Of a stretch of 64,000 nt of DNA, positions 3,931-43,158 are shown one piece after another. Made by a program: the position numbers and the translations under genes. The notes under the pieces were generated by a model. The model had not been told where the DNA came from. It saw nothing but the letters and a program-made list of their open reading frames with translations, and searched no databases. Location of the stretch: NCBI GenBank assembly GCA_030390025.1, contig CM059431.1, positions 122,080,001 to 122,144,000 on the forward strand, given 5' to 3'. The stretch is from Squalus acanthias. Taxonomy: Eukaryota. The first letter of the stretch is position 1. Every line of letters starts with the position of its first letter.

Positions 3931-4368
3931 CATCAAAGCTGCCATCAAAGTAGCTGGCAGGAATTCTTTGTCTGCTGGTCGGGCCAACTCTCCTTCCCCA
4001 AGAGCCGTAAGGGGCGAAATTCATCATTGCCCAGGAATGGGCGCTAACTTCTGAAAAGTTTGAGATTTAGCGCCAGGCGCTAATGAATCTCGTTGCACAC
4101 AAAATTCAGTGTCATCGCTCAAAGAAAGGATGGGAGCGCTAAATCAAGCGCTAATGACCTAGCTCAGTGGAGTTAGACTCAAAGCACTAAACAATTTCAG
4201 GTGCAGTCTAATCGCTGGTCATCATTGCCACAGGCTCTTTCCAGTTCTTAAAGGGGAGGTTCAATCATGCTGCAGAACCTCATTCTCAGCATTGCTGGTT
4301 CTGCAGCTGTCTCAGCAAGCAGCAGAAGGCCAAGGAGAAGGAACCGGACCACTGAAGGAGGTGTCATC

Positions 4369-6260
4369 ATGGCAGATCAACGGCCCAGGGAGACAGCTCA
4401 CAGATTCTGCGACCAGGAATTGGAGGCGTTGGTCTTCACTGTGGAGAGACGGAGGGCGGTGCTGTACCCGGCAAGTGGCAGGAGGCCCTCGCCACAAGTC
4501 TTCCACGCCATGGGGAGGGAGGTAGCCCAGCAGGTCTCGGGCAGCACTGTGGTCCACAGGACCCACACACAGTGCAAGAAGAAATTTAACAACCTCACTC
4601 GGGTGGTCAGGGTGAGTCAATGCCTCAACAAATGCTACATACCACCATCTGAACCATAGTCTGCACACACTGCCCAAAGCACCACACCCCCAGCACTCAC
4701 CCACCAACAATCTCTACCTACCAACACTCACACCCACATCTCACACCTTGCACACAGTGACAGCTATTCGACTATGGCAGGCACATCACCCAGACACATT
4801 GCTCCACACGCACTCGCACACATTCCTCTCTCTTGCAGGCCAAGGTTGCTCACAACAGGAGGGAGCAGGAGCGCACAGGCGGGGGACAAACCGACACCCA
4901 ACCACTGTCTGAGCTGGAGGAAAGAGTGCTGCAAATCATTGGGCGGCAGATGGTGGGCGCGTGGCCACCTGTGACGTTAACCCCCTTGGATACAACAACG
5001 GTATGTTCATCCCGACTCCTTCTTCTCACATCCCACTTCTCTCTCAGCCCACAAGCCTTTCCCACTTTCCAGCTAATCATGCTGTATGCATATATTTCTC
5101 CCTTCCTGCCCCCTCCCCTCACCTTAACCCGACTCTTGTGCCTTTATGCTTTCAGATAATCAGCAAGCAGCTGAGCAGCCTGTCCTTGAGGGTACCGTAG
5201 AGAGCGAAGCGGGAGAAGAGGAGGACAAAGAACACACCGTGTCACTGTATGTCTCACCCGCAGGCACCAGCTCAGATACTGGCACTACGCATTCTTTAGA
5301 GGCTAATATAGTAGCGGGATCTGCACAGGGTGAGGCACCGGGGACGAGCGGACTGCAGCAAGGTCAGGGGAAAGGGTAGCTCGGGGGCCAGCCCCCGGAG
5401 GGCGAGTTCGCATGCGTGTTCTGCTGCACAGGACTCACATGAGGACCTCGATGGGGAGGCCTATAGAAGAAGGGTGATGGACATGCACATGGAGATGATA
5501 GGTGCAATGGCAAGGGTGCCTGAGAGCCTCTCGGCAATGGTAAGGAGCATGGAGGAGTCCGCCTCCAACATTGCACAGAGCTCTGCACACACCATGGAGC
5601 CCATCCTTTGCAGTCTGCAAAGGATGGTGAACTCCCAGAGAGACCGTGGCGACCCAGACCTCATGCCACGTGTGATGGGCAATGTCGCAGCTTCCATTGC
5701 TGCACAGGCGGAAGCCACGCAACATCTTAGTGCTGTAATGCAGTCTATGCTTGGTGCCATCGATTCTCTGACTATTCTCATACAGTCTCAGCTTGATGCC
5801 ACGCAAGCTCTGACTGCTGCCATCATGGCTGGGTTGACCATGTCCACCGGGGCTTTCACGGTGTCGCAGCAGGCCAGCAATCTGTGCTCCAGCAGATTGG
5901 TAGTGATGCTGAGGTGCTGCCCCGGGGGAGTGGCAGTGGGTCAGTAGAGCAGGAAGCTGCTGTCCTCTCTCAGGATGACAGCATTCCTGATCCCACCACT
6001 GGCACTCCGCCATTGCCCTTGTCATCCAGCCAGCCCAGACTGCTGCCGCCCATGCTGAGGTGGTGTAGTCTACAGCCGGTCCTTCCAGGCCCAGAGCTGG
6101 TCGAGGGCGTCCTGCAAGGCCATCTGAAGTCTCCCGCATGGACACTCAACAGCCTTTCACCTGCCGTGCTGCAGCCACTGGGCCAACACCTCGTAGGAGC
6201 ACTAGAGTAGGCAAACGCACTGTAACAAGGGGCACGAAGGGATTGCACAAGGGTGAATAG
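4369..6260 (+). pseudogene. Harbinger Myb/SANT-like DNA-binding protein, 3 exons (4369-4611, 4839-5000, 5156-6260)
   Basis: MADQRPRETAHRFCDQELEALV...RTHTQCKKKFNNLTRVVR|GTGAGT; ttgcag|AKVAHNRREQERTGGG; GTATGT donor at 5001; ttcag| acidic then coiled-coil-like exon 3. Frameshifts/stops present. Confidence 0.85.
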
Positions 6261-6424
6261 CTAATATTGTTGTTGTAAATATATGTTCACTGATTATTGA
6301 TAAATTTATTAATTGGCTTTCGATGATTTTGTGATGTCTCTCATTTCAGCTTTGCGTTGTGACATGGCCTGCGACAGGGATGGAATGACGGGGATGTGGT
6401 GAGCAATGGGGATCTGGGGTTTAA

Positions 6425-7612
6425 ATTATTGGAACCGCAGTCTGATGAGGTGGTCATGGACCACCCTTCCAGAAGGCCGATTGAGTGGCTATCTCCTCCC
6501 TCGCTCCTGTTCCTCCTCCTCCTCCTCCTAGTCTTCCTCTTATTCCTTGTCCTCGTCCTCCTCCTCCTCTCCCGCTTCCTCCTCTTGACGTTGTCCCGCA
6601 ATCCCTGCTGGCAAGGGCTGGACCTTCATGATGGCATGCAGCACACCATGACGAAATGGGACTCCCACTCCAGCGAGTACTGGAGGGCTCCTCCCGCGCG
6701 GTCAAGCCAGCGGAACCGTTGCTTGAGCACCCCAATGGTCTGCTCGATGATGTTCCTGGTGGCAGCATGGCTCTCATTATATGAGTGCTGAGCAGGAGTG
6801 CTGGGGTTGCGGAGGGGAGTCGTGAGCCAGGTGGAGAGCAGATAGCCCTTGTCTTTAACCAGCCAGACACAAGCTTGATGTGGTGGCTAAAAGAGTGCTG
6901 GCACACCGGTCTGGCGCAGGATAAAGGCATAATGGCTGCTTCCAGTATAGCGGGCATTCACATCGAGGATTCGTTGTCTATGGTCGCACACCAACTGCAC
7001 ATTAAGTGAGTGGTAGCCTTTGCGGTTACGGAATACCTCAGGATTATTACGGGGTGCCCGCAAAGCCACACAGGTGCAGTCAATGGCACCCTGAACCATG
7101 GGGAAGCCCGCTATCCTGGTAAAGTCACATGCATGTTCGTCCTGCTTTTCTCTGGTGATAGGGAAGGAAATGTAATCCCTTCTCCTACTGTAGAGAGCCT
7201 TTGTAACCTCCTGGATGCAGCCATGGACGGCGAATTGTGAGATGTTAGCTATGTCTCTGTTGCAGATTAGAAGGAGCCGCTGGTGAAGAAATTGAGGGCG
7301 ACAGTCACCTTGACTGCCACTGAGAGAGCCGTGGTCGATCCGATCTGAGGCTGGAGGTCTGGTTGCAGGAGGTGGCAGAGTTCTGTGACCACAGCCTTGC
7401 TGAAGCGGAGCCTTCTAATGCACTGCTCCTGGCTTAATTGGAGGTCGGAGAAGTGCTCTCGGAATAACCTCGGAGGATAAGGCCTCCTGTTGAGAGTCCT
7501 GATGTCCCTCCATCTCCCTCTGGCCACATCTTGCAATCTCGCTTTCTCGCTGCCTCTGCTCCCTCTGCCATAGATCCTGGACGGCAAGGTCCACTGCCAG
7601 TACAGCCCCCAT
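6425..7612 (-). pseudogene. HARBI1-like Harbinger DDE transposase
   Basis: RRPYPPRLFR..QCIRRLRFSK..ALSVAVKVTVALNFFTSGSF*, VQGAIDCT, FRNRKGYHSLNVQLVCD, KDKGY, NIIEQTIG; acidic C-terminus; in-frame stop at 7267-7269 and frameshifts. Confidence 0.9.
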
Positions 7613-24600: not shown

Positions 24601-27600
24601 TGAGGTCAGCATCACTAGTCGTTTGTGTAAATGGATCTCACATCCTTTATGATCAGGAGTTTACTATTACGGCCCAATATGTAGTCCTACAATAACATGA
24701 CCAACACAGGCTATAACTGATAAACATCGTGCTATGTGAACTGAATAATGTAATCTTGCAGGTGCCCACATATATACTTCTGCAATCTTCTGAAAGTCAG
24801 TCTAATTCATACCTGTGATGAAGCCAAATATAAATCAACAAACTGGCTATTTTACAGTTGTTAATTGAAATAGTGAGTAACATTTATAGAATATCTCATC
24901 CCATTCTAACAATTCATTAAACATTTTTGTAGTATTGAAAATAATAAAATACATCACACTATCCCTGCTAAACTATTACATTTGTGACAAATGCATACTC
25001 TGGACCTGATTGGCTTCATCTTAAAATGAGAAATTGTTCACACCCTTTATGGCCTTTACCAGATCTTCTACTGACCATAGACATTGCACTCTATCCTTTT
25101 GTTCTCTAATTAGGCAGGAAGCCAGCCGGTTGACCTCTGACCCTTCCCTGCCAGGAACTGGCCAATAATAAACTAGCTAATGCCCCCTTGAGTTGGGTGG
25201 CCAAGAAACAAGCTCTTGCTGAGTTTACAGTATAGAAGCTATATTATGTTAACCACCCAATCTCCTCTCTCAGTCGATTGATGATATTCTCTCAACATGG
25301 TGTTGTATGCAAGAAATCCCATTCTGACAAAAGGAATTAAAAAGTTCATTAAAATGTCTGAATAGACTTCAATTGTCTGTAGTCAAAGTCGTAAGTGAAA
25401 GGCATCAGTTTACAAATGCATCTCCTTGTACTTCTGTTCAGAAAATGTAGGCTGAGAAATTGGAAAAGGCCTGAAAATGGGCGCAGGGATCACGATGTGC
25501 GATTAACCTATGCCTGTTCCTTCTGATGCAGGCAGCACGGAAACTTCATGCTAACTGCTAATTTAAATAATAGTAGCATGCAGCCCAGCTCTAAACGTGC
25601 TTGTAAGTGGCTACATGCCTCAGCAGGGGGCCCGAGTTCGTGTGAGAGTAGCACCACTTAAAACTAGCCTGCACTACTTAAAGGCAGCCTGCACCTCTTA
25701 AAGTGGAGGTGCATTCTGGCTGCAGCAGGTGCTGGATGTAGCTGGGGAAGAGAGTGTGAGCAAGAAGAAGATACACTGATGGCGCAATAGGAAAGAGAGT
25801 GGGTTCCAAGATTTTCTGACGCAGCACTGGAGGCTTTGGTGCAGGAGGTGGACAGGAGGAGAAAGGCCCTCTATCCACAGGTGGCCCTGAGGCCTTCCAG
25901 ACAAACTGTGAGAAGTCAATGGGAGCAGATAGCCGTCACGGACAATGCCAGCAGTGTAACCCCAAGGACCTGGATACAATGCTGCAAGAAGTTTAATGAC
26001 CTCACACGAGTGGTCAAGTTCAGTGAATTCATCTTCAAATGCCACATCCTTACTACTGAACTACCAGGCTCAGACACTGCTCAATTCACCCCCACACCCC
26101 CCCCCCCCACCCCACCCCCACTTCACTCACCTATCAATCATGACTTATACCTCACATTCACAGTTTCACCTCACCCTCACACACTTAGCACTGCTGCAAG
26201 CCTCCCAAACAAATCTCACAGCTTACACAGACTGCCAGCTATTCAACCATGACAGGCACATCACCCAAATACATTGCACCACACTCAATGACACACTTCC
26301 TTCTCTCTTGCAGGACAAGCTGGCTCATAACCGAAGGCAGCAGGGGCTACCTGCAGGGAGACAGGCACGGCTCCATGCCCTTACCACGATGGAGGAGACG
26401 GTGCTCAAGATTACTGGAGAGGCCATTGCTGAGCCCATGGCCAGCGCTGGGGCTGCAACAGTCAAAGATAATGGTATCCTCATACCTAATCATCCTTCTC
26501 AGATCCCACTTCCTCCTCATCCTACAATCTCTTCTGATATACAAACTGCAGATTGTGTAAGCATGCAGCTCTTGCTTTCCCTCCTTCCCTCACCGCAACC
26601 CTACCCTTGTGCCTTTCTTCTTTTCAGATAGCCAAGAATTGCAACCTGGCCAGGAAGTGGTGGAGGAGCAAGGAGGGGAAAAAGAAGAAGGCAGTGATGC
26701 TGGAGACAGATCACCATCACTCGATTTCATATTCGCAACCAACAGCACAGATGCTGACACTCTGTGTAATTTAAAGGATAGGTTAGATGCGGGATCTGCA
26801 CGTGGTGAGACGCTGAGCACAAGTGGCCTGCAGCCAGGGCAGGGGGCAAGGGTAGGGCTGGTGCCAGTTCCCCGGAGTGCGAGGGCACTTACAGGTTCTG
26901 CTGCAGAGGACTTAGATGAGGATGCCAATCAGGCGGCCTACAGAAGAAGGCAGATGGGTATGCACAATGTAATGCTTGGTGCATTGGCAGGCCTGCCAGA
27001 AGCCTCAGTGCAATGTCAAGGAGCATGGAGGCGTTCGACACCAACCTCGCACAGGGCTTTGCGCAGAGCTTGGAGCCCATCCTTTCCAGCATGGAAGTGA
27101 TGGTCAACTCCATTAGCGCACTTGTGGACCCAACCATGATGCAGCGTCTGATGGCTGATGACTCCACTTCTATTGCTGCATAAGCAGAAGCCACACAAAA
27201 TCTGGGTGCTACAGTGGAAGCTCAGACTTCTGTCATGCAAGCTCAGCTTGCTGCCACACACAGTCTGCACAGAGCGGGATTAAATGGAGTGTACTTAAAC
27301 AGAGTGTTTTATTAGGGAATTTGGAAAGAGTGGGAATTTCTGGTAAGTAGAAGCTGTAAAGAGTGAAATTTAGTTTTAAGATTTTGATTTTAAACTAGAA
27401 CTTTAAAAACTGTAGTTAACAGAAGCTGCCTGTCAGTGGCAGTTAACTGTCATGCAGCTGTAAGTGTTTGTCTTGAACAGGTGCTAATCACAGGGAGCAG
27501 GAGAGCTGTGTCAACACTTGTAAATTGGGTGAGGCTCCTAGAGTATAAGAGTATAAGAGTAAACATTTCTGCAGAGCACAGAGTGGTCTGCACAGAGCGG

Positions 27601-27855: not shown

Positions 27856-28816
27856 ATGGCAGTGCAGATGGTGTGGCACAACTGCAGCATGTGGGAGTTT
27901 GTGGAGAGCATTGTGATCCCAGACAACCACATTTGCAGTAAGTGCCTGCATCTTGATAAACTTCAGCTCAGAGTTTTTGAGCTGGAGTCTGAGGGTGCAG
28001 ACATTGTGGGGCATCAGGGAGGGGGAGAGTTACCTGGACACTTTGATCCAGGAGGCAGTCACACCCCTTAGGTTAGGTAGTGGTACAGGTCTTGTTAGTG
28101 GTCAGGGACAGGAGAGTGTGACTGCAACTCAGGCAGGTAAGGGGACCCCAGGAGCAGTGCTGGAGGAGCCTCAGCCTTTACCCTTGTCCAACAGGTATGA
28201 GGTTCTTGCTACCTGTGTGGATGAGGGAAAAGACTGCAGGATGGATGAGCAGGCTGACCATGGCACCAGGGTGCAGGAGGCTATTCAAGCGGGGAGAGTG
28301 AAAGGGAATGTAGTTATGGTAGGCGACAGTGTAGTCATGGGGATAGATACTGTTCTCTGCAGCCACGACCGAGAGTTCCAAAGGTTCTGTTGCCTGCCCG
28401 GTGCCAGGGTTAAAGACATCTCCTTGCAGCTGGAGAAGAACTTGGAGTGGAAGGGGGATGATCCGGTTGTCGTGGTCCACATAGGAGCCAACGACATAGG
28501 TAGAACTAGGAATGAGGTTCTGCTAAGAGTGTTTGAGGAGCTAGGATCCAAATTAAAAAGCAGAACCTCAAAGGTAATAATCTCTGGATTATTACCTGAG
28601 CCACGTGAAAATTGGCATAGGATCAAACAGATTAGAGGTTTAAATGTGTGGCTCAAACAGTGGTGTGGAAGGAAAGGGTTTCAGTTCATGGGGCACTGGC
28701 ACCAGTACTGGGGAAAGAGGGAGCTGTTCCGTTGGGACAGGCTCCACTTAAAGCGGGTTGGGACCAGTGTCCTGGTGAACTGAATAACTAGGGTAGTAGA
28801 CAGGGCTTTAAACTAA
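27856..28816 (+). pseudogene. CR1 ORF1 (zinc finger/leucine zipper + SGNH esterase)
   Basis: HNCSMW..ICSKCLHLDKLQLRVFELESE, LSNRYEVL, VVMVGDS, CLPGARV, HIGANDI, DRLHL; frameshift near 27990, premature TGA at 28781, natural end RALN* at 28816. Confidence 0.88.
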
Positions 28817-29196
28817 TGAAGGGGGTGGCGGGAGGATTCAGGAAAGAGTAAATTTAAAAGCAGTGAGAGAAATATCAAGGCTCTGGAGCAGAGTAGAGAT
28901 TTGGGTAAAAATAAGTTGAGTGGGTCAGGAAGGGACAGAGAGAGTAACACAAGTAATAAGGCATCAGTGACTAAGGTGACATCTATGAAAAATAGAAATA
29001 AGTCAAAGCTCAAGGCACTATATCTGAATGCGTGAAGCATTCGCAACAAAATAGATGAATTAATAGCGCAGATAGAAATGAATAGGTTTAATCTACGAGC
29101 CATTACGGAGACGTGACTGCAAAGTGGCCAAGGTTGGGAACTATATATTCCAGGATACTTAAATTTTAGAAGAGATAGGCAAAATGGAGAAGGAGG

Positions 29197-33253: not shown

Positions 33254-34457
33254 TAAGATTAAAGACGTCTTACTACAATTATATAGGGCCCCGGTGAGAC
33301 CACACCTGGAGTATTGTGTACAGTTTTGGTCTCCTTACCTAAGGAAGGATATACTTGCCATAGAGGGAGTGCAACAAAGGTTCACCAGACTATTTCCTGG
33401 GATGGGGGCATTATCCTATGAGGAGAGGTTGAGTAGACTAGGCCTATATTCTCTAGAGTTTAGAAGAATGAGAGGTGATTACATTGAAACATACAAAATT
33501 CTTACAGGGCTTGACAGGGTAGATGCAGGGAGTATGTTTCACCTGGCTGGGGAATCTAGAACCAGGGGTCACAGTCTCAGAATAAGGGGTTGCCCATTTA
33601 GGACTGAGATGAGGAGAAATTTCTTCACTCAGAGGGTGGTGAATCTTTGGAATTCTCTACCCCAGAGGGCTGTGGAGGCTCAGTCATTGAGTATATTTAA
33701 GACAGAGATCGATAGATTTTTGAATATTAAGGGAATCAAGGGATATGGGGATAGTTCAGGAAAGTGGAGATGAGGTAGAAGATCAGCCATGATCTTATTG
33801 AATGGCAGAGCAGGCTCGAAGGGACGACTGGCCTACTCCTGCTCCTATTTCTTATAAGCTCAGACAGCTGCCACACAATCTCAGACTGCTGCCATCATGG
33901 CTGCAGTTACCAGTGTGGAAAGGGGCTTGCAGGGTGTTACAGCAGTCCAGCAATCTGGAAAAAGCTCCGTGGAGCACGAACCTGCTGTCCTCTCTTAAGA
34001 TGGCAGCATTTGCCCTCACACCACAGTCACTCTGCCAGTGTCCTTGTTGTTGTCTGTTAGCCAGCCAGCCCAGACTGCAGCCGCCCATGCCGAGGTGGTG
34101 CAGTCCGAAGCCGGTCCTTTGAGGCCCAGAGCTGCTCGAGGTCGTCCTCCAAGGCCATCTGCAGTCTCCCCCACTGAAAGCCTTCCACTAACCATGCAAC
34201 AGCCACTGCGGTAGCACTGCGTAGGAGCACTGGAACACGCAAAGGCACATGGAAGACAGGCACTAAGGAAATGCACAAGGGTGATTAGTTGACTTTGGTA
34301 TGTAATATAGGATGGTTTGATTTATAAATTTGGTTTTGATTGTGTGTTGTGTGTTGGCTTTTATTTTAGCATTTTGGTCAGAAGGACGCTTTGATGGTCA
34401 GTAACAGTGGGAAGGTAAGGTGTGGGACTGCTGGTGAATGTGGAATTGGGGTAGTGT

Positions 34458-35547
34458 TCACTGCTACCGCAGTCGGTTGAGTCGATCATGGACAGCCCGG
34501 CCAAAAAGGGGCTGTGTTGGTTGCCTCCTCCCTTCCTCTGTGCCCTCATGATGGCGAGGTTATACAGCATGGAGCAGACCATGAAGGATCTTGAGACGCA
34601 CTCTGGCCAGTACTGCAGGGCCCCTCCAGCACGGTCCAGGCAGCGGAAGCATTGTTTAAGTTCCCTAATGGTCTGCTTGATCACATTTTGTGTTGCAGCA
34701 TGGCTTTCATTATATTCATGCTGCCCACGTGTGCATGAATTGCGCACCAGAGTCATGAGCCAGGTGGTTAGCGGATAGCCCTTGTCGGCCAGAAGCCACT
34801 CTCTGGTTTGTTGTGGTGGCTCAAATGCGGATGGTACAGTGGACTGCTGCAGAATGAAGGCAGCGTGACTGTTGCCAGGATACCGAGAATTAACCTGCAG
34901 ATTGCACTGAGTATGGTCGCACACCAGCTGGACATTGAGGGAGTGCAATCCCCCTTCCAGTTGCAGTACATCTATGAATTCACATCCGACGCCCATTCAG
35001 CAAAGTGTGTGCAGTCAATGGCACCCTGCACCATGGGAGAGCCTGCTATCCTGGCGAAGCTGCATGCTCGCTCTGCCTGCTTCTCTCTGGCAAGAGGGAA
35101 TGAAATGTATTCACCTCTCTTTGTATACAGAGCCTCAATGACCTCCCTTAGGCAACAGTGCACGGCAAACTGGAAGATGTTGGAAATATCGCCTGCTCCA
35201 GCCTGGCAGGAGCCCAACGCATAAAAATTCATGGTCACGCTCACCATCACAGCCACTGGCAATGCCATCCTCACCCTGCTGTGAGGCTACAGATCTGCCT
35301 GCAACAGGTGGCAGATTTCTGTTAGCACCTCCTTAGTGAAGTGGCGACGTTGCATACACTGTTCCTCATTGAAGGTGAAGGAGGAGAATTGCTGCCTGGA
35401 GATCCTGGGTGGATATGACCTCCTGTTGAGAGCCCTTCTACCCCTCCTCCTCCTCCCTCTTCGAGCAGCTTGTCCTGCTCTGTTTCGCCTATGCGCATTC
35501 TCCCTGTCATGCTACATGCCAAGGGTGTTACAAACTAGAGCAACCAT
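34458..35547 (-). pseudogene. Harbinger B HARBI1-like transposase
   Basis: ALPVAVMVSVTMNFYALGSCQ..ISQF-like, VQGAIDCTH, HSLNVQLVCD, YPGNSH, LADKGY, YNESHAATQNVIKQT, FRCLDR; frameshifted. Confidence 0.9.
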
Positions 35548-36832: not shown

Positions 36833-39278
36833 CATCAGTGGAACATTTTCTGCAGCAGTCATTCCTGTGACTTTTCTAGAGAGGAATGTTTCTGTTTAAT
36901 TTATCTAACTGTTGAATCACTGCTGTTGTTACAGTGAACGATTTGAAGTGATATTGCTGTTTAATTTCTCAAAATAATGTCCTTTAGGGAAGGAAATCTG
37001 CCGTCCTTACCTGGTCTGGCCAATATGTGACTCCAGACCCACAGCAATGTGGTTGACTCTTAACTGCCCTCTGAAATGGCCTAGCAAACCACTCAGTTGT
37101 AACAAACCGCTACAGAAAACAATAAGAAGAATAAAACCGGATGGACCACCTGGCATCGACCTCGGCATAGGCTTTGGACATGACAATGGCACACCCAGCC
37201 CAGTCGACCCTGCAAAGTCCTCCTCACCAACATTTGGGGACTTGTGCCAACATTGGGAGAGCTGTCCCACAGACTACTCAAGTAACAGCCAGACATAGTC
37301 ATACTCACAGAATCATACCGTTCAGCCAATGTCCCAGATTCCTCCATCACCATCCCTGGGTATGTCCTGTCCCACCAGCAGGACAGACCCACCAAAGGAG
37401 GTGACACTGTGGTAAACAGTCGGGAGGGAGTGGCACTGGGAGTTCTCAACATTGACTCCGGACCCCATGAAGTCTCATAGCTTCAAGTCAAGCATGGGCA
37501 AGGAAACCTCCTGCTGATTACCACCTACCACCCTCCCTCAGCTGATGAATCAGTACTCCTCCATGTTGAACACCACTTGGAAGAAGCACTGAGGGTAGCA
37601 AGGGCACAGAATGTACTCTGGGTGGGGGACATCTACTGACCGAGCTGGCTGAGTTCTAAAGGACATAGCTGCCAGAGTGAGCCTGCGACAGGTGGTGAGA
37701 GAACCAACAAGAAGGGAAAACCAACTTGACCTCATCCTCATCAATCTACCTGTCGCAGATGCATCTGTCATGACAGTATTGGTAGCAGTGACCAGCGCAC
37801 AGTACTTGTGGAGACAAAGTCCCGTCTTCACACCGAGCACACCCTACATCGTGTTGTGTGGCACTACCATCGTACTAAATGGAATAGATTCAGAACAGAT
37901 CTAGCAGCTCAATACTGGCCATCCATGAGGTGCTGTGGACCATCAGCAGCAGCAGAATTGTATTCCAATACAATCAGTAACCTGATGGCCTGGCATATCT
38001 CTCACTCTACCATTACCATCAAGCCAGGGGACCAACCCTGGTTAAATGAAGAGTGTAGAAGAGCATGCCAGGAGCAACACCAGGCATAGCTAAAAATGGT
38101 GAAGCTGCAACACAGGACTACATGCATGCTAAACAGCAGAAGCAGCATGCTATAGAAAGAGCTAAGCATCCCACAATCAACGGATCAGATCAAAGCTCTG
38201 CAGTCCTGCCACATCCAGTTGTGAATGGTGGTGGACAATTAAGTAACTAATTGGAGGAGGAGGCTCCATGAACATCCCCATCCTCAATGATGGAGGAGCC
38301 CAGCACGTGAGTGCAAAAGACAAGACTGATTTGTTTGCAACCATCATCAGCCAGAAGTGCCGAGTGCATGATCCATCTCGGTCTCCTCCTGAGGTCCCCA
38401 CCATCACAGGAGCCAGTCTTCAGCCAATTCGATTCACTCTACGTGATATCAAGAAATGGCTGAGTGCACTGGATACAGCAAAGGTTAAGGGCCCTGACAA
38501 CATCTTGGCTGTCGTGCTGAAGACTTGTGCTCCAGAACTAGCCGCACCTCTAGCCAAGCTGTTCCATTACAGCTACAACACCAGTATCTAACTGACAATG
38601 TGGAAAACTGCCCAGGTATGTCCTGTCCACAAAAAGCAGGACAAATCCAATCCAGCCAATTACCGCCCCATCAGTCTATTCTCAATCATCAGCAAAGTGA
38701 TGGAAGGTGTCGTCAACAGTGCTATCAAGCTGTACTTACTAATCAATAACCGGCTCACTGATTGTAAGGTTTCCAAAATTTACAGATCCCCAAAACCTAA
38801 GGAAAAAGGACTTTGGAACTACCTCAGTGATAATATTGCATTTGGGCCTAACATAAGGAATCTAAGACCAAAAAACAAGTTTTGGCATTTTAAAAAACTA
38901 TGTCTGGGCCTGTAAAGGAACAAGAGGTGGGTAAAACCTCTGTAAAAGCAGTTTGGGTATTGCAGTTAATTGCAATGTCTGGGGAACCGGGTTGAACTCA
39001 CTCAAAGCCCCAGCAAGTATTAACATTTTGACAATAGACCCGAGGAGAAGACAGTCCCACCCAAAACAACAGGTCCCATCAAGCCGATTACAGGGCCCAT
39101 CAGGAAACATGCATAATACAGAGCACCCAGGACTAGGCTATAGATCAGCCTAGGAACCCAAAACACAAAAAACAATCACCAGCAATCAGCCAAGGAGATA
39201 GACAGGATGCAAACCATCCCAAAACCCATTTGACACTTACAGAGCAGTTACTAGTAGCAGGCCCGCCAAATTCAGACA

Positions 39279-42200
39279 ATGGGCTTTAAACTAATTAGTG
39301 GGGGGGAGGTTTCAAGAGAGCAAAAAATAAAAATGACAACAGAGAGGGTCATAGATATAGGTAGCAGTAGGGGAATCACAAACCAGAGCGTGGCAGGAAG
39401 GGGCAGAGTGTGTGGAGTAAAAGGTAAAGTGGTAAAAAGTGAAAAAGCAGGAACTAAGTGCCACAAAGCATATTTGAAAGTTCTCTATCTGAATGCACGT
39501 AGCATTCGTAACAAAATAGACGAGTTAATGGCACAAATAACTACATATGGTTATGATATTGTGGCCATTACAGAAACATGGCTGCAGGGTGACAATGCCT
39601 GGGAATTAAACATACCAGGTTATTTAACGATCAGGAAGGACAGGCAGGAAGGAAGGGGAGGTGGGGTGGCTATGTTAATAAAGGAAGGAATCACTGTAAT
39701 ACAGAGTAATGATATTGGGTCAAAAAATCATGATAATGAAACAGTTTGGGTGGAGATAAGGAATAATAAGGGGAAAAAAACACTAGTGGGCGTAGTCTAT
39801 AGGCCTCCGAACAGTTGCAACTCTGTTGGACGGAGTATCAATCAGGAAATAGTTGAGGCATGTAATAAGGGAACATCTATAATTATGGGGGATTTTAACT
39901 ATCATATTAATTGGACAAATCAAATGGGGCAGGGCTGCCTTGAGGATGAGTTCATTGAGTGTATTAGGGATGGGTTTCTTGAGCAGTATGTAACTGAACC
40001 GACCAGGGGGCAAGCAACCTTAGATCTGGTCCTGTGTAACGAGACAGGATTAATTAAAAATGTCCTAGTAAAGGATCCCCTTGGAATGAGTGACCATAAC
40101 ATGGTTGAATTCCATATTCAATTAGAGGGTGAGAAGGTTGGATCTCAAACAAGCACGCTAAGCTTGAATAAAGGTGACTATGAAGGTATGCGAGCGGAAT
40201 TGAGTAGAGTGGATTGGGAAAATAGATTAAAGGGTAAGACGACACATGATCAGTGGTGTACATTCAAGGATTTATTTTACAACTTCCAAAAAATATATAT
40301 TCCACTGAAAAGAAAAGGGTGTAAAAGAAAGGACAGTCATCCGTGGCTAAGTAAAGAAATTAAGGATAGTATTCGACTAAAAACAAGGGCATATAAGGTA
40401 GCGAAATCTAGTGGGAGGACAGAGGATTGGGAAAACTTTAAAAGGCAGCAAAAAATAACAAAAAGATTGATTAAGAAAGGGAAGATATATTATGAAAGTA
40501 AATTAGCAAAAAATATAAAAACAGAAAGTAAGAGTTTTTATAGTTATATAAAAAGAAAAAGGGTGGCTAAAGTAAATGTTGGTCCCTTAGAGGATGAGAC
40601 CGGGAAATTAATGGTGGGAAATATGGAGATGGCAAAAACACTGAATGAATATTTTGTATCAGTCTTTACAGTAGAGGACACTAAGAATATCCCAACACTG
40701 GACAAACAGGGGGCTATAGGGGGAGAGGAGCTAAACACGATCAAAATCACTAAGGAAGTGGTACTCGGTAAAATAATGGGACTCAAGGCGGATAAATCAC
40801 CTGGACCTGATGGCTTACATCCTAGAGTCTTGAAGGAAGTGGCGGTAGGGATTGTAGATGCATTGGTAATAATTTTTCAAAACTCCCTGAATTCCGCTAA
40901 GGTCCCGGCAGACTGGAAAACTGCTAATATAACACCCTTATTTAAAAAGGGCAGTAGACAGAAGGCTGGTAACTATAGACCGGTTAGCCTAACATCTGTG
41001 GTAGGTAAAATTTTGGAGTCCATTATTAAGGAAACAGTAACAGGACATTTGGATAATCATAATTTAATAGGACAAAGTCAGCATGGTTTTACGAAGGGGA
41101 AGTCATGTTTGACAAATTTGCTGGAGTTCTTTGAGGAAGTAACATATAGAGTGGATAAAGGGGAACCAGTGGACGTAGTGTATTTAGACTTCCAAAAGGC
41201 ATTTGACAAGGTGCCACACAAAAGATTATTGCTTAAGGTAAAAAATCACGGGATTGGGGGTAATATTCTGGCATGGATAGAGGATTGGCCATCTAACAGA
41301 AAGCAAAGAGTTGGGATAAATGGTTCATTCTCAGACTGGCAATCAGTAACTAGTGGTGTTCCACAGGGGTCAGTGCTGGGTCCCCAACTCTTTACAATCT
41401 ATATTAACGATTTGGAGGAAGGGACCAAGTGTAACATATCAAAATTTGCAGATGATACAAAGATGGGAGGGAAAGTAGTGAGTGAGGAGGACATAAAAAA
41501 CCTGCAAGGGGACATAGACAGGCTAAGTAAGTGGGCAGAGATTTGGCAGATGGAATACAACACTGGAAAGTGTGAGGTGATGCACTTTGGCAGGAAAAAT
41601 CCTAGAGCAATTTATTATCTTAATGGCAAGAAACTGGAGAGTACTGAAGTGCAAAGGGATCTGGGGGTCCTGGTGCACGAAACTCAAAAGGTTAGTATGC
41701 AGGTGCAGCAAGTGATTAAGAAGGCAAATGGAATGTTGGCTTTCATTGCTAGGGGGATAGAATATAAAAATAGGGAGGTATTGCTTCAGTTGTACAAGGT
41801 ATTGGTGAGACCGCACCTGGAATACTGCATACAGTTTTGGTGTCCTTACTTAAGGAAAGACATCCTTGCTCTCGAGGCAGTGCAAAAAAGGTTCACTCGG
41901 TTAATCCCGGGGATGAGGGGGTGGTCATATGAGGAGAGGTTGGGTAGATTGGGACTCTACTCATTGGAGTTCAGAGGAATGAGAGGCGATCTTATTGAAA
42001 CATATAAGATTGTGAAGGGGTTGGATCGGGTGGATGCGGGGAGGATGTTCCCGATGACGGGTGAAACTAGAACTAGGGGACATAGTCTTAGAATAAGGGG
42101 CTGCTCTTTCAAAACTGAGATGAGGAGGAACTACTTCACTCAGAGGGTGGTAGGTCCATGGAATATGCTGCCACAAAAAGCTGTAGAAGCTACATCATTA

Positions 42201-42284
42201 AATAAATTTAAAACAGAAATAGACAGTTTCCTAGAAGTAAAGGGCATTAAGGGTTACGGGGAGCGGGCAGGAATTTGGACATGA
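39279..42284 (+). CDS. CR1 ORF2 endonuclease-reverse transcriptase (1001 aa, uninterrupted)
   Basis: APE motifs YLNARS, ITETW, YRPP, GDFN, LDL, SDH; RT motifs PGPDG, YRPVSL, DFQKAFD, GVPQGSVLGP, FADD. Confidence 0.92.
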   Translation: MGFKLISGGEVSREQKIKMTTERVIDIGSSRGITNQSVAGRGRVCGVKGKVVKSEKAGTKCHKAYLKVLYLNARSIRNKIDELMAQITTYGYDIVAITETWLQGDNAWELNIPGYLTIRKDRQEGRGGGVAMLIKEGITVIQSNDIGSKNHDNETVWVEIRNNKGKKTLVGVVYRPPNSCNSVGRSINQEIVEACNKGTSIIMGDFNYHINWTNQMGQGCLEDEFIECIRDGFLEQYVTEPTRGQATLDLVLCNETGLIKNVLVKDPLGMSDHNMVEFHIQLEGEKVGSQTSTLSLNKGDYEGMRAELSRVDWENRLKGKTTHDQWCTFKDLFYNFQKIYIPLKRKGCKRKDSHPWLSKEIKDSIRLKTRAYKVAKSSGRTEDWENFKRQQKITKRLIKKGKIYYESKLAKNIKTESKSFYSYIKRKRVAKVNVGPLEDETGKLMVGNMEMAKTLNEYFVSVFTVEDTKNIPTLDKQGAIGGEELNTIKITKEVVLGKIMGLKADKSPGPDGLHPRVLKEVAVGIVDALVIIFQNSLNSAKVPADWKTANITPLFKKGSRQKAGNYRPVSLTSVVGKILESIIKETVTGHLDNHNLIGQSQHGFTKGKSCLTNLLEFFEEVTYRVDKGEPVDVVYLDFQKAFDKVPHKRLLLKVKNHGIGGNILAWIEDWPSNRKQRVGINGSFSDWQSVTSGVPQGSVLGPQLFTIYINDLEEGTKCNISKFADDTKMGGKVVSEEDIKNLQGDIDRLSKWAEIWQMEYNTGKCEVMHFGRKNPRAIYYLNGKKLESTEVQRDLGVLVHETQKVSMQVQQVIKKANGMLAFIARGIEYKNREVLLQLYKVLVRPHLEYCIQFWCPYLRKDILALEAVQKRFTRLIPGMRGWSYEERLGRLGLYSLEFRGMRGDLIETYKIVKGLDRVDAGRMFPMTGETRTRGHSLRIRGCSFKTEMRRNYFTQRVVGPWNMLPQKAVEATSLNKFKTEIDSFLEVKGIKGYGERAGIWT

Positions 42285-42519: not shown

Positions 42520-43158
42520 AATGAACTGAACAGATTTGGCGGGTAGATAAGGCCATATTCAATAGGTAAGATTGAAGGCCTGTTAAAACCCAGTTAACGT
42601 GCTAGTAAATCGTTACCGATTTACGAGCCCGCCAAAACTAGACTATAAACTGAGTAGATTTGGCAGGTAGATAAGGCCACTTCAATTCTGTATAATTGAA
42701 GGCCCTCCCAGCACAGACCAGGGAAAAGAAGAGAGAGAAACAACACAGTTCAACGTCATTGGGTCGAGCAGTCGGTCGCAAACGGTGGTCATCAAGAAGG
42801 AGGAGAGACCAAGAAGAAGAAGGCCCGAGCTGAAAGCGAGTCGGCATCGCTCACCACTCAGACACACCTGAGTCCAGCTCGCGAAGACACCACCTCGACG
42901 GACCTCCAACAACGGCCCCAACACAGTCACCCGGAGCAACAAGCAGCAACAAGTCACCGACAGCTCCACGAGGTCAACCGACACACCAAACAAGGCCTAA
43001 AGCCATCGCAGAAACCAAAGGCCTCACGAAACCAACAACCGCGCATTACCCCCAACTGACCGGGTAATCGCAGGCCACCGCGACCAACAAAGACCAACTC
43101 CAGGGAAGAAAACCCGAAGAATCGCAAAGTTTCCACACTACAAACTACTCCTGACTTA

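Follow-up and report, generated by a model that had tools for sequence, protein, structure and literature searches.

The window, a 64,000-nucleotide stretch of the repeat-rich 3.7 Gb genome of Squalus acanthias, contains two copies of a LINE that is probably CR1 rather than L2, an assignment that derives from the homologues of its ORF1 and from general features of CR1. The nearest proteins to the CR1 ORF1 of this genome come from rays and sharks, and homologues are also found in amniotes. The features of the two copies are as follows.

27917..28816 (+): ORF1 (SGNH esterase, decayed) in the older copy, which belongs to family B (from ORFs and a Pfam Lipase_GDSL_2 match with E 2e-7, just under the cut-off)
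28807..28818 (+): second junction, in which the heptamer leads into TAATG, so that the stop TAA overlaps with an ATG of the ORF2 frame, from the sequence
39278..39281 (+): 5' target-site duplication AATG, from the empty-site copies L220-L223, L225 and L226
39282..42519 (+): young, 5'-truncated CR1 copy, family A; the family homology starts at 39282 and target duplications flank the copy
39285..39291 (+): slippery heptamer T_TTA_AAC (TTTAAAC) in the X_XXY_YYZ register, from the sequence; majority form in 19/19 lineages
39292..39294 (+): stop codon TAA of ORF1, directly 3' of the heptamer, from the sequence; TAA or TAG in 19/19 lineages
39285..39491 (+): -1-frame linker of 69 codons, open into the APE motif YLNARS, from the sequence
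39285..42284 (+): ORF2 frame (APE endonuclease and reverse transcriptase, RT), 999 open codons from the heptamer, from the sequence and Pfam
39300..39306 (+): G run at +9 to +15 past the heptamer, a putative 3' stimulator by virtue of its conservation across lineages
42520..42523 (+): 3' target-site duplication AATG, matching the 5' duplication and the empty-site copies

The younger copy consists of the last bases of ORF1, the linker, an intact ORF2 and the 3' tail. Its -1 frame is the ORF at 39258-42284 (+), which spans 1008 amino acids from stop to stop, and in which Pfam (39258-42281) detects Exo_endo_phos (PF03372) and RVT_1 (PF00078), so that ORF2 contains an APE endonuclease and an RT. 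The original prediction for this locus, namely, that TTTAAAC at 39285-39291 lies in register directly before a TAA, that the -1 frame is open through a linker into the APE and RT domains, that a G-rich tract follows the heptamer, and that the heptamer recurs at 28807 in a copy whose linker Met codons do not align with those of the first, agrees with the sequence in all these respects, with 69 codons leading to the APE Asn. The ORF1 predicted to end at this site is missing: the copy is truncated at 39282, three bases 5' of the heptamer, with another repeat upstream, and ORF1 is found in full-length sister copies. These are 99% identical to the window copy and carry a full ORF1 (for example, that of copy L024 consists of 321 amino acids, ends in RAVERALN followed by the stop, and is identified by Pfam as an SGNH esterase, PF13472, above the cut-off). 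Truncated and devoid of ORF1, the copy at 39282 carries the signal but cannot itself make an ORF1-ORF2 fusion.

The insertion of this copy split a high-copy host repeat (38763-39281 and 42520 onward; 2597 candidates, 95-97% identical). The empty site is seen in six of the seven other copies of the repeat, these being the six that were read, which gives a 4-nucleotide AATG duplication. By chance, the AATG target site supplies ORF2 of the window copy with an in-frame ATG (39279-39281), which was rejected as a feature of the CR1 family because it is target-site DNA. The truncation together with this ATG results in an intact ORF2-only frame of about 1000 codons (39278-42284). Among the 40 best matches, only one copy has this arrangement.

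In the older copy, ORF1 is interrupted by a premature TGA at 28781, and the G run has one extra base, so that the -1 frame shuts after 14 codons and the later part of the copy is no longer in phase. The TAATG of this copy (28814-28818), which is also present in family B copies among L031-L060, places a stop-start of the SART1 type on top of the slippery site. Copies L035, L040, L059 and L060 of this family have one flank in common, being segmental duplicates.

Conservation of the ORF1 end across lineages

Copies of the element were collected by searching for DNA that resembles three junctions, the two of the window and a diverged one, with queries that include the heptamer, and further by means of the Pfam esterase model (70 of the 150 hits read) and five ORF1 proteins; each was anchored at the D-G-L-H-L motif of the esterase, and the junction was set at the best match nearby. 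The resulting 19 lineages comprise 14 families of the source genome and five metagenome loci (26 of the 38 metagenome loci were read); several of the lineages rest on one or two copies, and they are related, so that counts of lineages are not counts of independent events. In all 19, the majority form of the ORF1 end is NNT-TTA-AAC-TAR, with TTA, AAC and a T-final preceding codon each found in 19/19 lineages (16/16 in a smaller count). The codon before TTA is GGT, GCT, GAT, CAT, ACT, TGT, TAT or TTT and thus specifies eight amino acids. The invariant residues D-G-L-H-L, located about 20 codons upstream and used as a control, are encoded by 2, 4, 5, 2 and 5 codons, respectively. The synonymous sites of the control are saturated while the heptamer is fixed, which implies a constraint at the nucleotide level beyond the needs of the protein. 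Free synonymous variation within the heptamer, raised at the outset as one outcome that would refute the original prediction, is thus contradicted by its fixation in 19 lineages. At the level of individual copies, the exact heptamer is present in 155 of the 172 anchored own-genome copies, more than expected by chance.

TGA never serves as the stop after the heptamer, TAA or TAG being used in 19/19 lineages. The absence of TGA is not explained by the -1-frame protein because TGA would also yield Leu at this position. The heptamer is absent in the distant esterase LINE loci L199, L208/L209 and L267, so that the feature marks a clade rather than all esterase LINEs. In L199 (approximately 1330-1500), the distant esterase ORF1 ends with TGA followed by CTA, APE-like sequence is found in the same frame, and an in-frame Met follows; we take this TGA-CTA end to resemble a leaky-stop readthrough context. 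In L208 and L209, past approximately 2050, a stop ends the esterase ORF1 and an APE lies beyond it without a change of frame, with an ATG two codons farther along, an arrangement that suggests reinitiation in another lineage. A scan of IMG/VR with two alignments yielded no relatives.

The ends of the ORF1 proteins were compared in those 135 of 200 homologues that have the esterase His motif 20-45 amino acids from the end: 83 of these end in LN (about 19 of them near-identical), 10 in GN, two in KN and 40 in other dipeptides, the background for slip-compatible dipeptides being 7%. Zootoca, Varanus, Macrochelys and Hirundo (lizard, turtle, bird) are the named sources of LN-ending proteins. The residue before LN is K, E, Q, M or W, amino acids whose codons cannot end in T, in one of the 83 proteins, compared with a background of 15.5%, and the residue before GN is Gln in nine of 10. 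The LN ends and the Q-G-N ends, the latter found in distant ORF1 proteins, would fit the needs of T_TTA_AAC and G_GGA_AAC, respectively, the GN and KN types being known from protein alone. Both U_UUA_AAC and G_GGA_AAC rank among the most shifty heptamers (PMC5009743). The distance between the esterase His motif and the end dipeptide ranges over 24-39 amino acids, with the dipeptide remaining next to the stop. DNA of a GN-type element was not found in a GTDB scan (16 loci, three of them read), and when a GN-type protein served as the query in the source genome, all the families found were of the LN type.

Phase, linker and start codons of ORF2

The APE Asn is unlocated in 26 of the 172 anchored copies; among the other 146, an unselected set of own-genome copies, 109 are in the -1 phase, and 22 and 15 are in the other two. 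The 37 out-of-phase copies belong mostly to older families with indels in the G run (18/28 copies in family B, 8/14 in N and 2/2 in K), and at least four of those in family B share a flank, that is, are duplicates; one of the five metagenome loci, L188, is also out of phase. The linker from the heptamer to the endonuclease, as measured by the modal or representative length, ranges from 105 to 246 nucleotides and is a multiple of three in 13 of the 14 own-genome families and four of the five metagenome lineages: the -1 phase, the conservation of which had been put forward as a check, is kept across linkers of differing length. The linker representatives had been chosen by hand for the openness of their -1 frame, and their shuffle probabilities were therefore set aside; 109/146 is the unselected count. 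In the last 30 codons of the linkers, there are 44 stops in the ORF2 frame versus 289 and 538 in the other frames (4380 codons), and the linker is open as coding sequence also upstream of the Met codons of families C and D.

A conserved start Met of ORF2, for which position 39333 had been named as an example, was not found: the Met at 39333 is fixed in family A only (23/23 copies). No in-frame Met precedes the APE Asn in nine of the 16 readable lineages (G, H, J, L, N and L181-L184), as judged from the representative copy or from most of the in-phase copies, with H and J being mixed; the other seven have an in-frame linker Met, the first of which is at codon 4, 17, 19, 20, 28, 44 or 58. In two copies of family L, which is young and intact, 968 codons are open and the first Met is at 167, past the FNARS, ITETW and YRPP motifs, and in the metagenome lineage L182, 963 codons are open and the first Met is 14 residues beyond the APE Asn. 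Because the first Met falls past the APE motifs or the APE Asn, an AUG start, judging by these sequences, could not give a whole endonuclease in family L and L182. The codon after the -1-frame Leu varies freely (ATT, ATG, GCT, ACT, AAA, AAT, GTT, GAA, GAT, GGT), and a conserved AUG overlapping or adjoining the ORF1 stop is found in only one of the 16 readable lineages, family B. In copies L087, L173, L230, L238, L239, L264 and L265 (families D and L), a one-base change in a G run upstream of the heptamer joins ORF1 and ORF2 in frame; such single-copy fusions were rejected as evidence because they are scattered G-run errors as expected from copying.

Routes to the ORF2 protein

The form and register of the heptamer, the -1 phase of ORF2, a linker that stays open, the lack of start codons and a G run that is fixed lead us to favor programmed -1 ribosomal frameshifting at T_TTA_AAC, resulting in an ORF1-ORF2 fusion, as the likely route to ORF2 in esterase-type CR1, with a probability of about 0.8. 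Under this mechanism, ribosomes ending ORF1 would slip by -1 on U_UUA_AAC before terminating, with tRNA-Leu and tRNA-Asn slipping in tandem from UUA AAC to UUU AAA; the junction peptide would be L-N then L, or L-K-L, and the slipped ribosomes would go on through the basic linker into APE-RT. The product would be a minor ORF1(esterase)-linker-APE-RT fusion beside the more abundant free ORF1 protein, that is, a gag-pol-like low ratio of ORF2 to ORF1, and the adjacent stop and the unstructured G run (+11 to +15) would stimulate slippage. Of the criteria for frameshifting, the elements have the heptamer in register, a -1 ORF open from the heptamer (decayed copies excepted) and conservation at the nucleotide level; from these observed features, we infer the slippage, its rate, the role of the stimulator and the fusion. 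The originally proposed ORF1-APE-RT fusion by a -1 shift, then, probably applies to the family, where the comparative predictions are borne out, and not to the copy at 39282 that lacks ORF1.

A downstream stem-loop or pseudoknot, the prediction of which had been suggested as a check, was not found. Local folds (60, 90 and 120 nucleotides) and duplex scans of 15 representatives gave weak, unshared structures and no conserved hairpin or pseudoknot; a scan for ungapped helices between the G run and as much as 3.5 kb of the sequence that follows, covering 23 stretches of which many were broken up by other repeats, revealed no partner shared across families; and an Rfam search downstream of the junction at E<=5 produced no match. 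Instead of a classical 3' RNA structure 5-9 nucleotides downstream, such as accompanies the majority of -1 sites, the junctions have the G run at +11 to +15, with G at +11 and +12 in 19/19 lineages, at +13 in 17, at +14 in 18 and at +15 in 16. A tentative proposal, which on balance we are inclined to doubt, is that frameshifting occurs without an RNA structure, driven by the adjacent stop and the G run fixed at +11, which would be read by a host or element protein or by the ribosome, giving one of the most abundant LINE groups of animals its gag-pol-like esterase-RT fusion. If true, such structure-free reading would amount to a stimulator of a new class, the conservation of which would extend from sharks to animal lineages that are very distant.

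The best surviving alternative to frameshifting, although an unlikely one, is termination-reinitiation, whereby the ribosome halts at the TAA or TAG of ORF1 and restarts in the -1 frame at an AUG or non-AUG codon, yielding a separate ORF2 protein, with the conserved motif acting as a restart signal. There are precedents: stop-restart is known for SART1 (UAAUG) and has been proposed for L1 (PMC3708506, PMC5972666), and calicivirus restart tolerates non-AUG codons. The TAATG of family B, with the ATG in the ORF2 frame, and the stop immediately after the heptamer in 19/19 lineages fit this scenario, and the linker that is open from the stop onward fits it as well as it fits frameshifting. However, stop-restart leaves unexplained the exact X_XXY_YYZ form with its invariant synonymous sites and the switch between L-N and G-N with the matching preceding residue, and no restart codon is conserved, since the position that follows the Leu of the -1 frame varies freely.

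Far less probable is the production of ORF2 from a processed RNA, either by splicing into an AG at +10/+11 or by transcriptional slippage on T3A3 or the G run. Many families have CAG-G at +9 to +11, about 12 nucleotides after the heptamer, but the AG at +10/+11 is missing in six of the 19 lineages, there is no polypyrimidine tract, and none of the 13 joints listed in four possible-RNA runs ends at this AG, a weak test given that the contigs show presence only and that the RNA status of the runs is a guess. Genomic copies often have indels in the G run, some of which fuse ORF1 and ORF2 in frame, but these fusions are scattered single copies, as copying errors predict. Least probable of all is that Leu-Asn is retained at the end of ORF1 for the sake of its protein, with the likeness of the DNA inherited or caused by codon bias and ORF2 starting at any linker Met: the elements are A/G-rich and related, and seven of the 16 readable lineages have a linker Met, but the neighbouring invariant codons are saturated, the dipeptide remains at the stop despite the varying (24-39 amino acids) distance to the His motif, and the young intact families that have no usable Met largely refute a linker-Met start.

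Comparison with other systems and significance

The elements resemble the canonical CR1 of vertebrates (type IVB, CR1 subgroup 7 of PMC4120745; survey in PMC13343379) in having a Cys-rich or coiled N-terminus and an SGNH esterase in ORF1, an APE-RT ORF2, 5' truncation and a short target duplication; these two papers describe two ORFs, to which the slippery junction is an added feature. The term 'frameshift' has no matches in the main text of PMC3905857, PMC4120745 and PMC13343379 to the extent covered, CR1 is not mentioned in the covered portion of PMC5009743, the source on frameshifting, and no CR1 frameshift appears in the covered portions of PMC3708506, PMC11835228, PMC5911963, PMC5006619, PMC4255032 and PMC5972666. 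Frameshifting in CR1 is not reported in the literature found, although the primary CR1 papers of 1997-2003 may discuss it.

Among APE-type non-LTR elements, TRE5-A and TRE3-A of Dictyostelium are alike in that a -1 frameshift is required for ORF2, according to a legend in a review (PMC5911963); they differ in being amoebozoan, tRNA-gene-targeting elements of another lineage, and the comparison is with this statement rather than with the sequence of the shift site. The coronavirus of infectious bronchitis uses U_UUA_AAC, the same heptamer in the same register as in CR1, and retroviral gag-pol similarly joins a structural-type ORF to a polymerase ORF at a low rate (PMC5009743). However, the viral sites use a 3' pseudoknot or hairpin, none of which was found in CR1, and CR1 is a LINE, not a virus. 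In the arterivirus PRRSV, a short, unstructured, protein-bound motif, CCCANCUCC, is located about 11 nucleotides 3' of the site where the shift occurs (PMC5009743), and the G run of CR1 starts at +11, but the PRRSV motif is C-rich whereas that of CR1 is G-rich, so that the likeness is positional only. The UAAUG of SART1 and reinitiation in L1 address the same second-ORF problem of a bicistronic LINE RNA, and family B has TAATG; however, SART1 and L1 yield a separate ORF2p from an AUG, whereas most of the CR1 lineages surveyed have no AUG at the stop.

According to PMC3708506, it is unclear how ORF2 is translated from bicistronic LINE RNA; the route that has been studied is stop-restart. CR1 accounts for 11.8% of the chicken genome (PMC11835228). 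If the frameshift reading is correct, the conserved -1 shift would give CR1 a retrovirus-like route to ORF2, would set the ORF1p:ORF2p ratio and would tether the enzyme to ORF1p multimers, and those CR1 ORF2 annotations that start at an internal Met would be wrong. The CR1 junction would then also offer a frameshift site of natural origin whose candidate stimulator is short and free of structure. No RNA records with the junction were listed, which says nothing about expression. ORF1-less CR1 lineages are described in PMC13343379, so that ORF2p does not need a fused esterase. The copy at 39282, truncated at the junction and provided with an ATG by its target DNA, illustrates one way in which an ORF1-less arrangement of this kind can come about by chance.

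Elsewhere in the window, at 4252-7611, 25791-27100 and 34361-35286, there are repeated fragments of Myb/SANT-like and nuclease-like ORFs. These are presumably remnants of a Harbinger-type DNA transposon.
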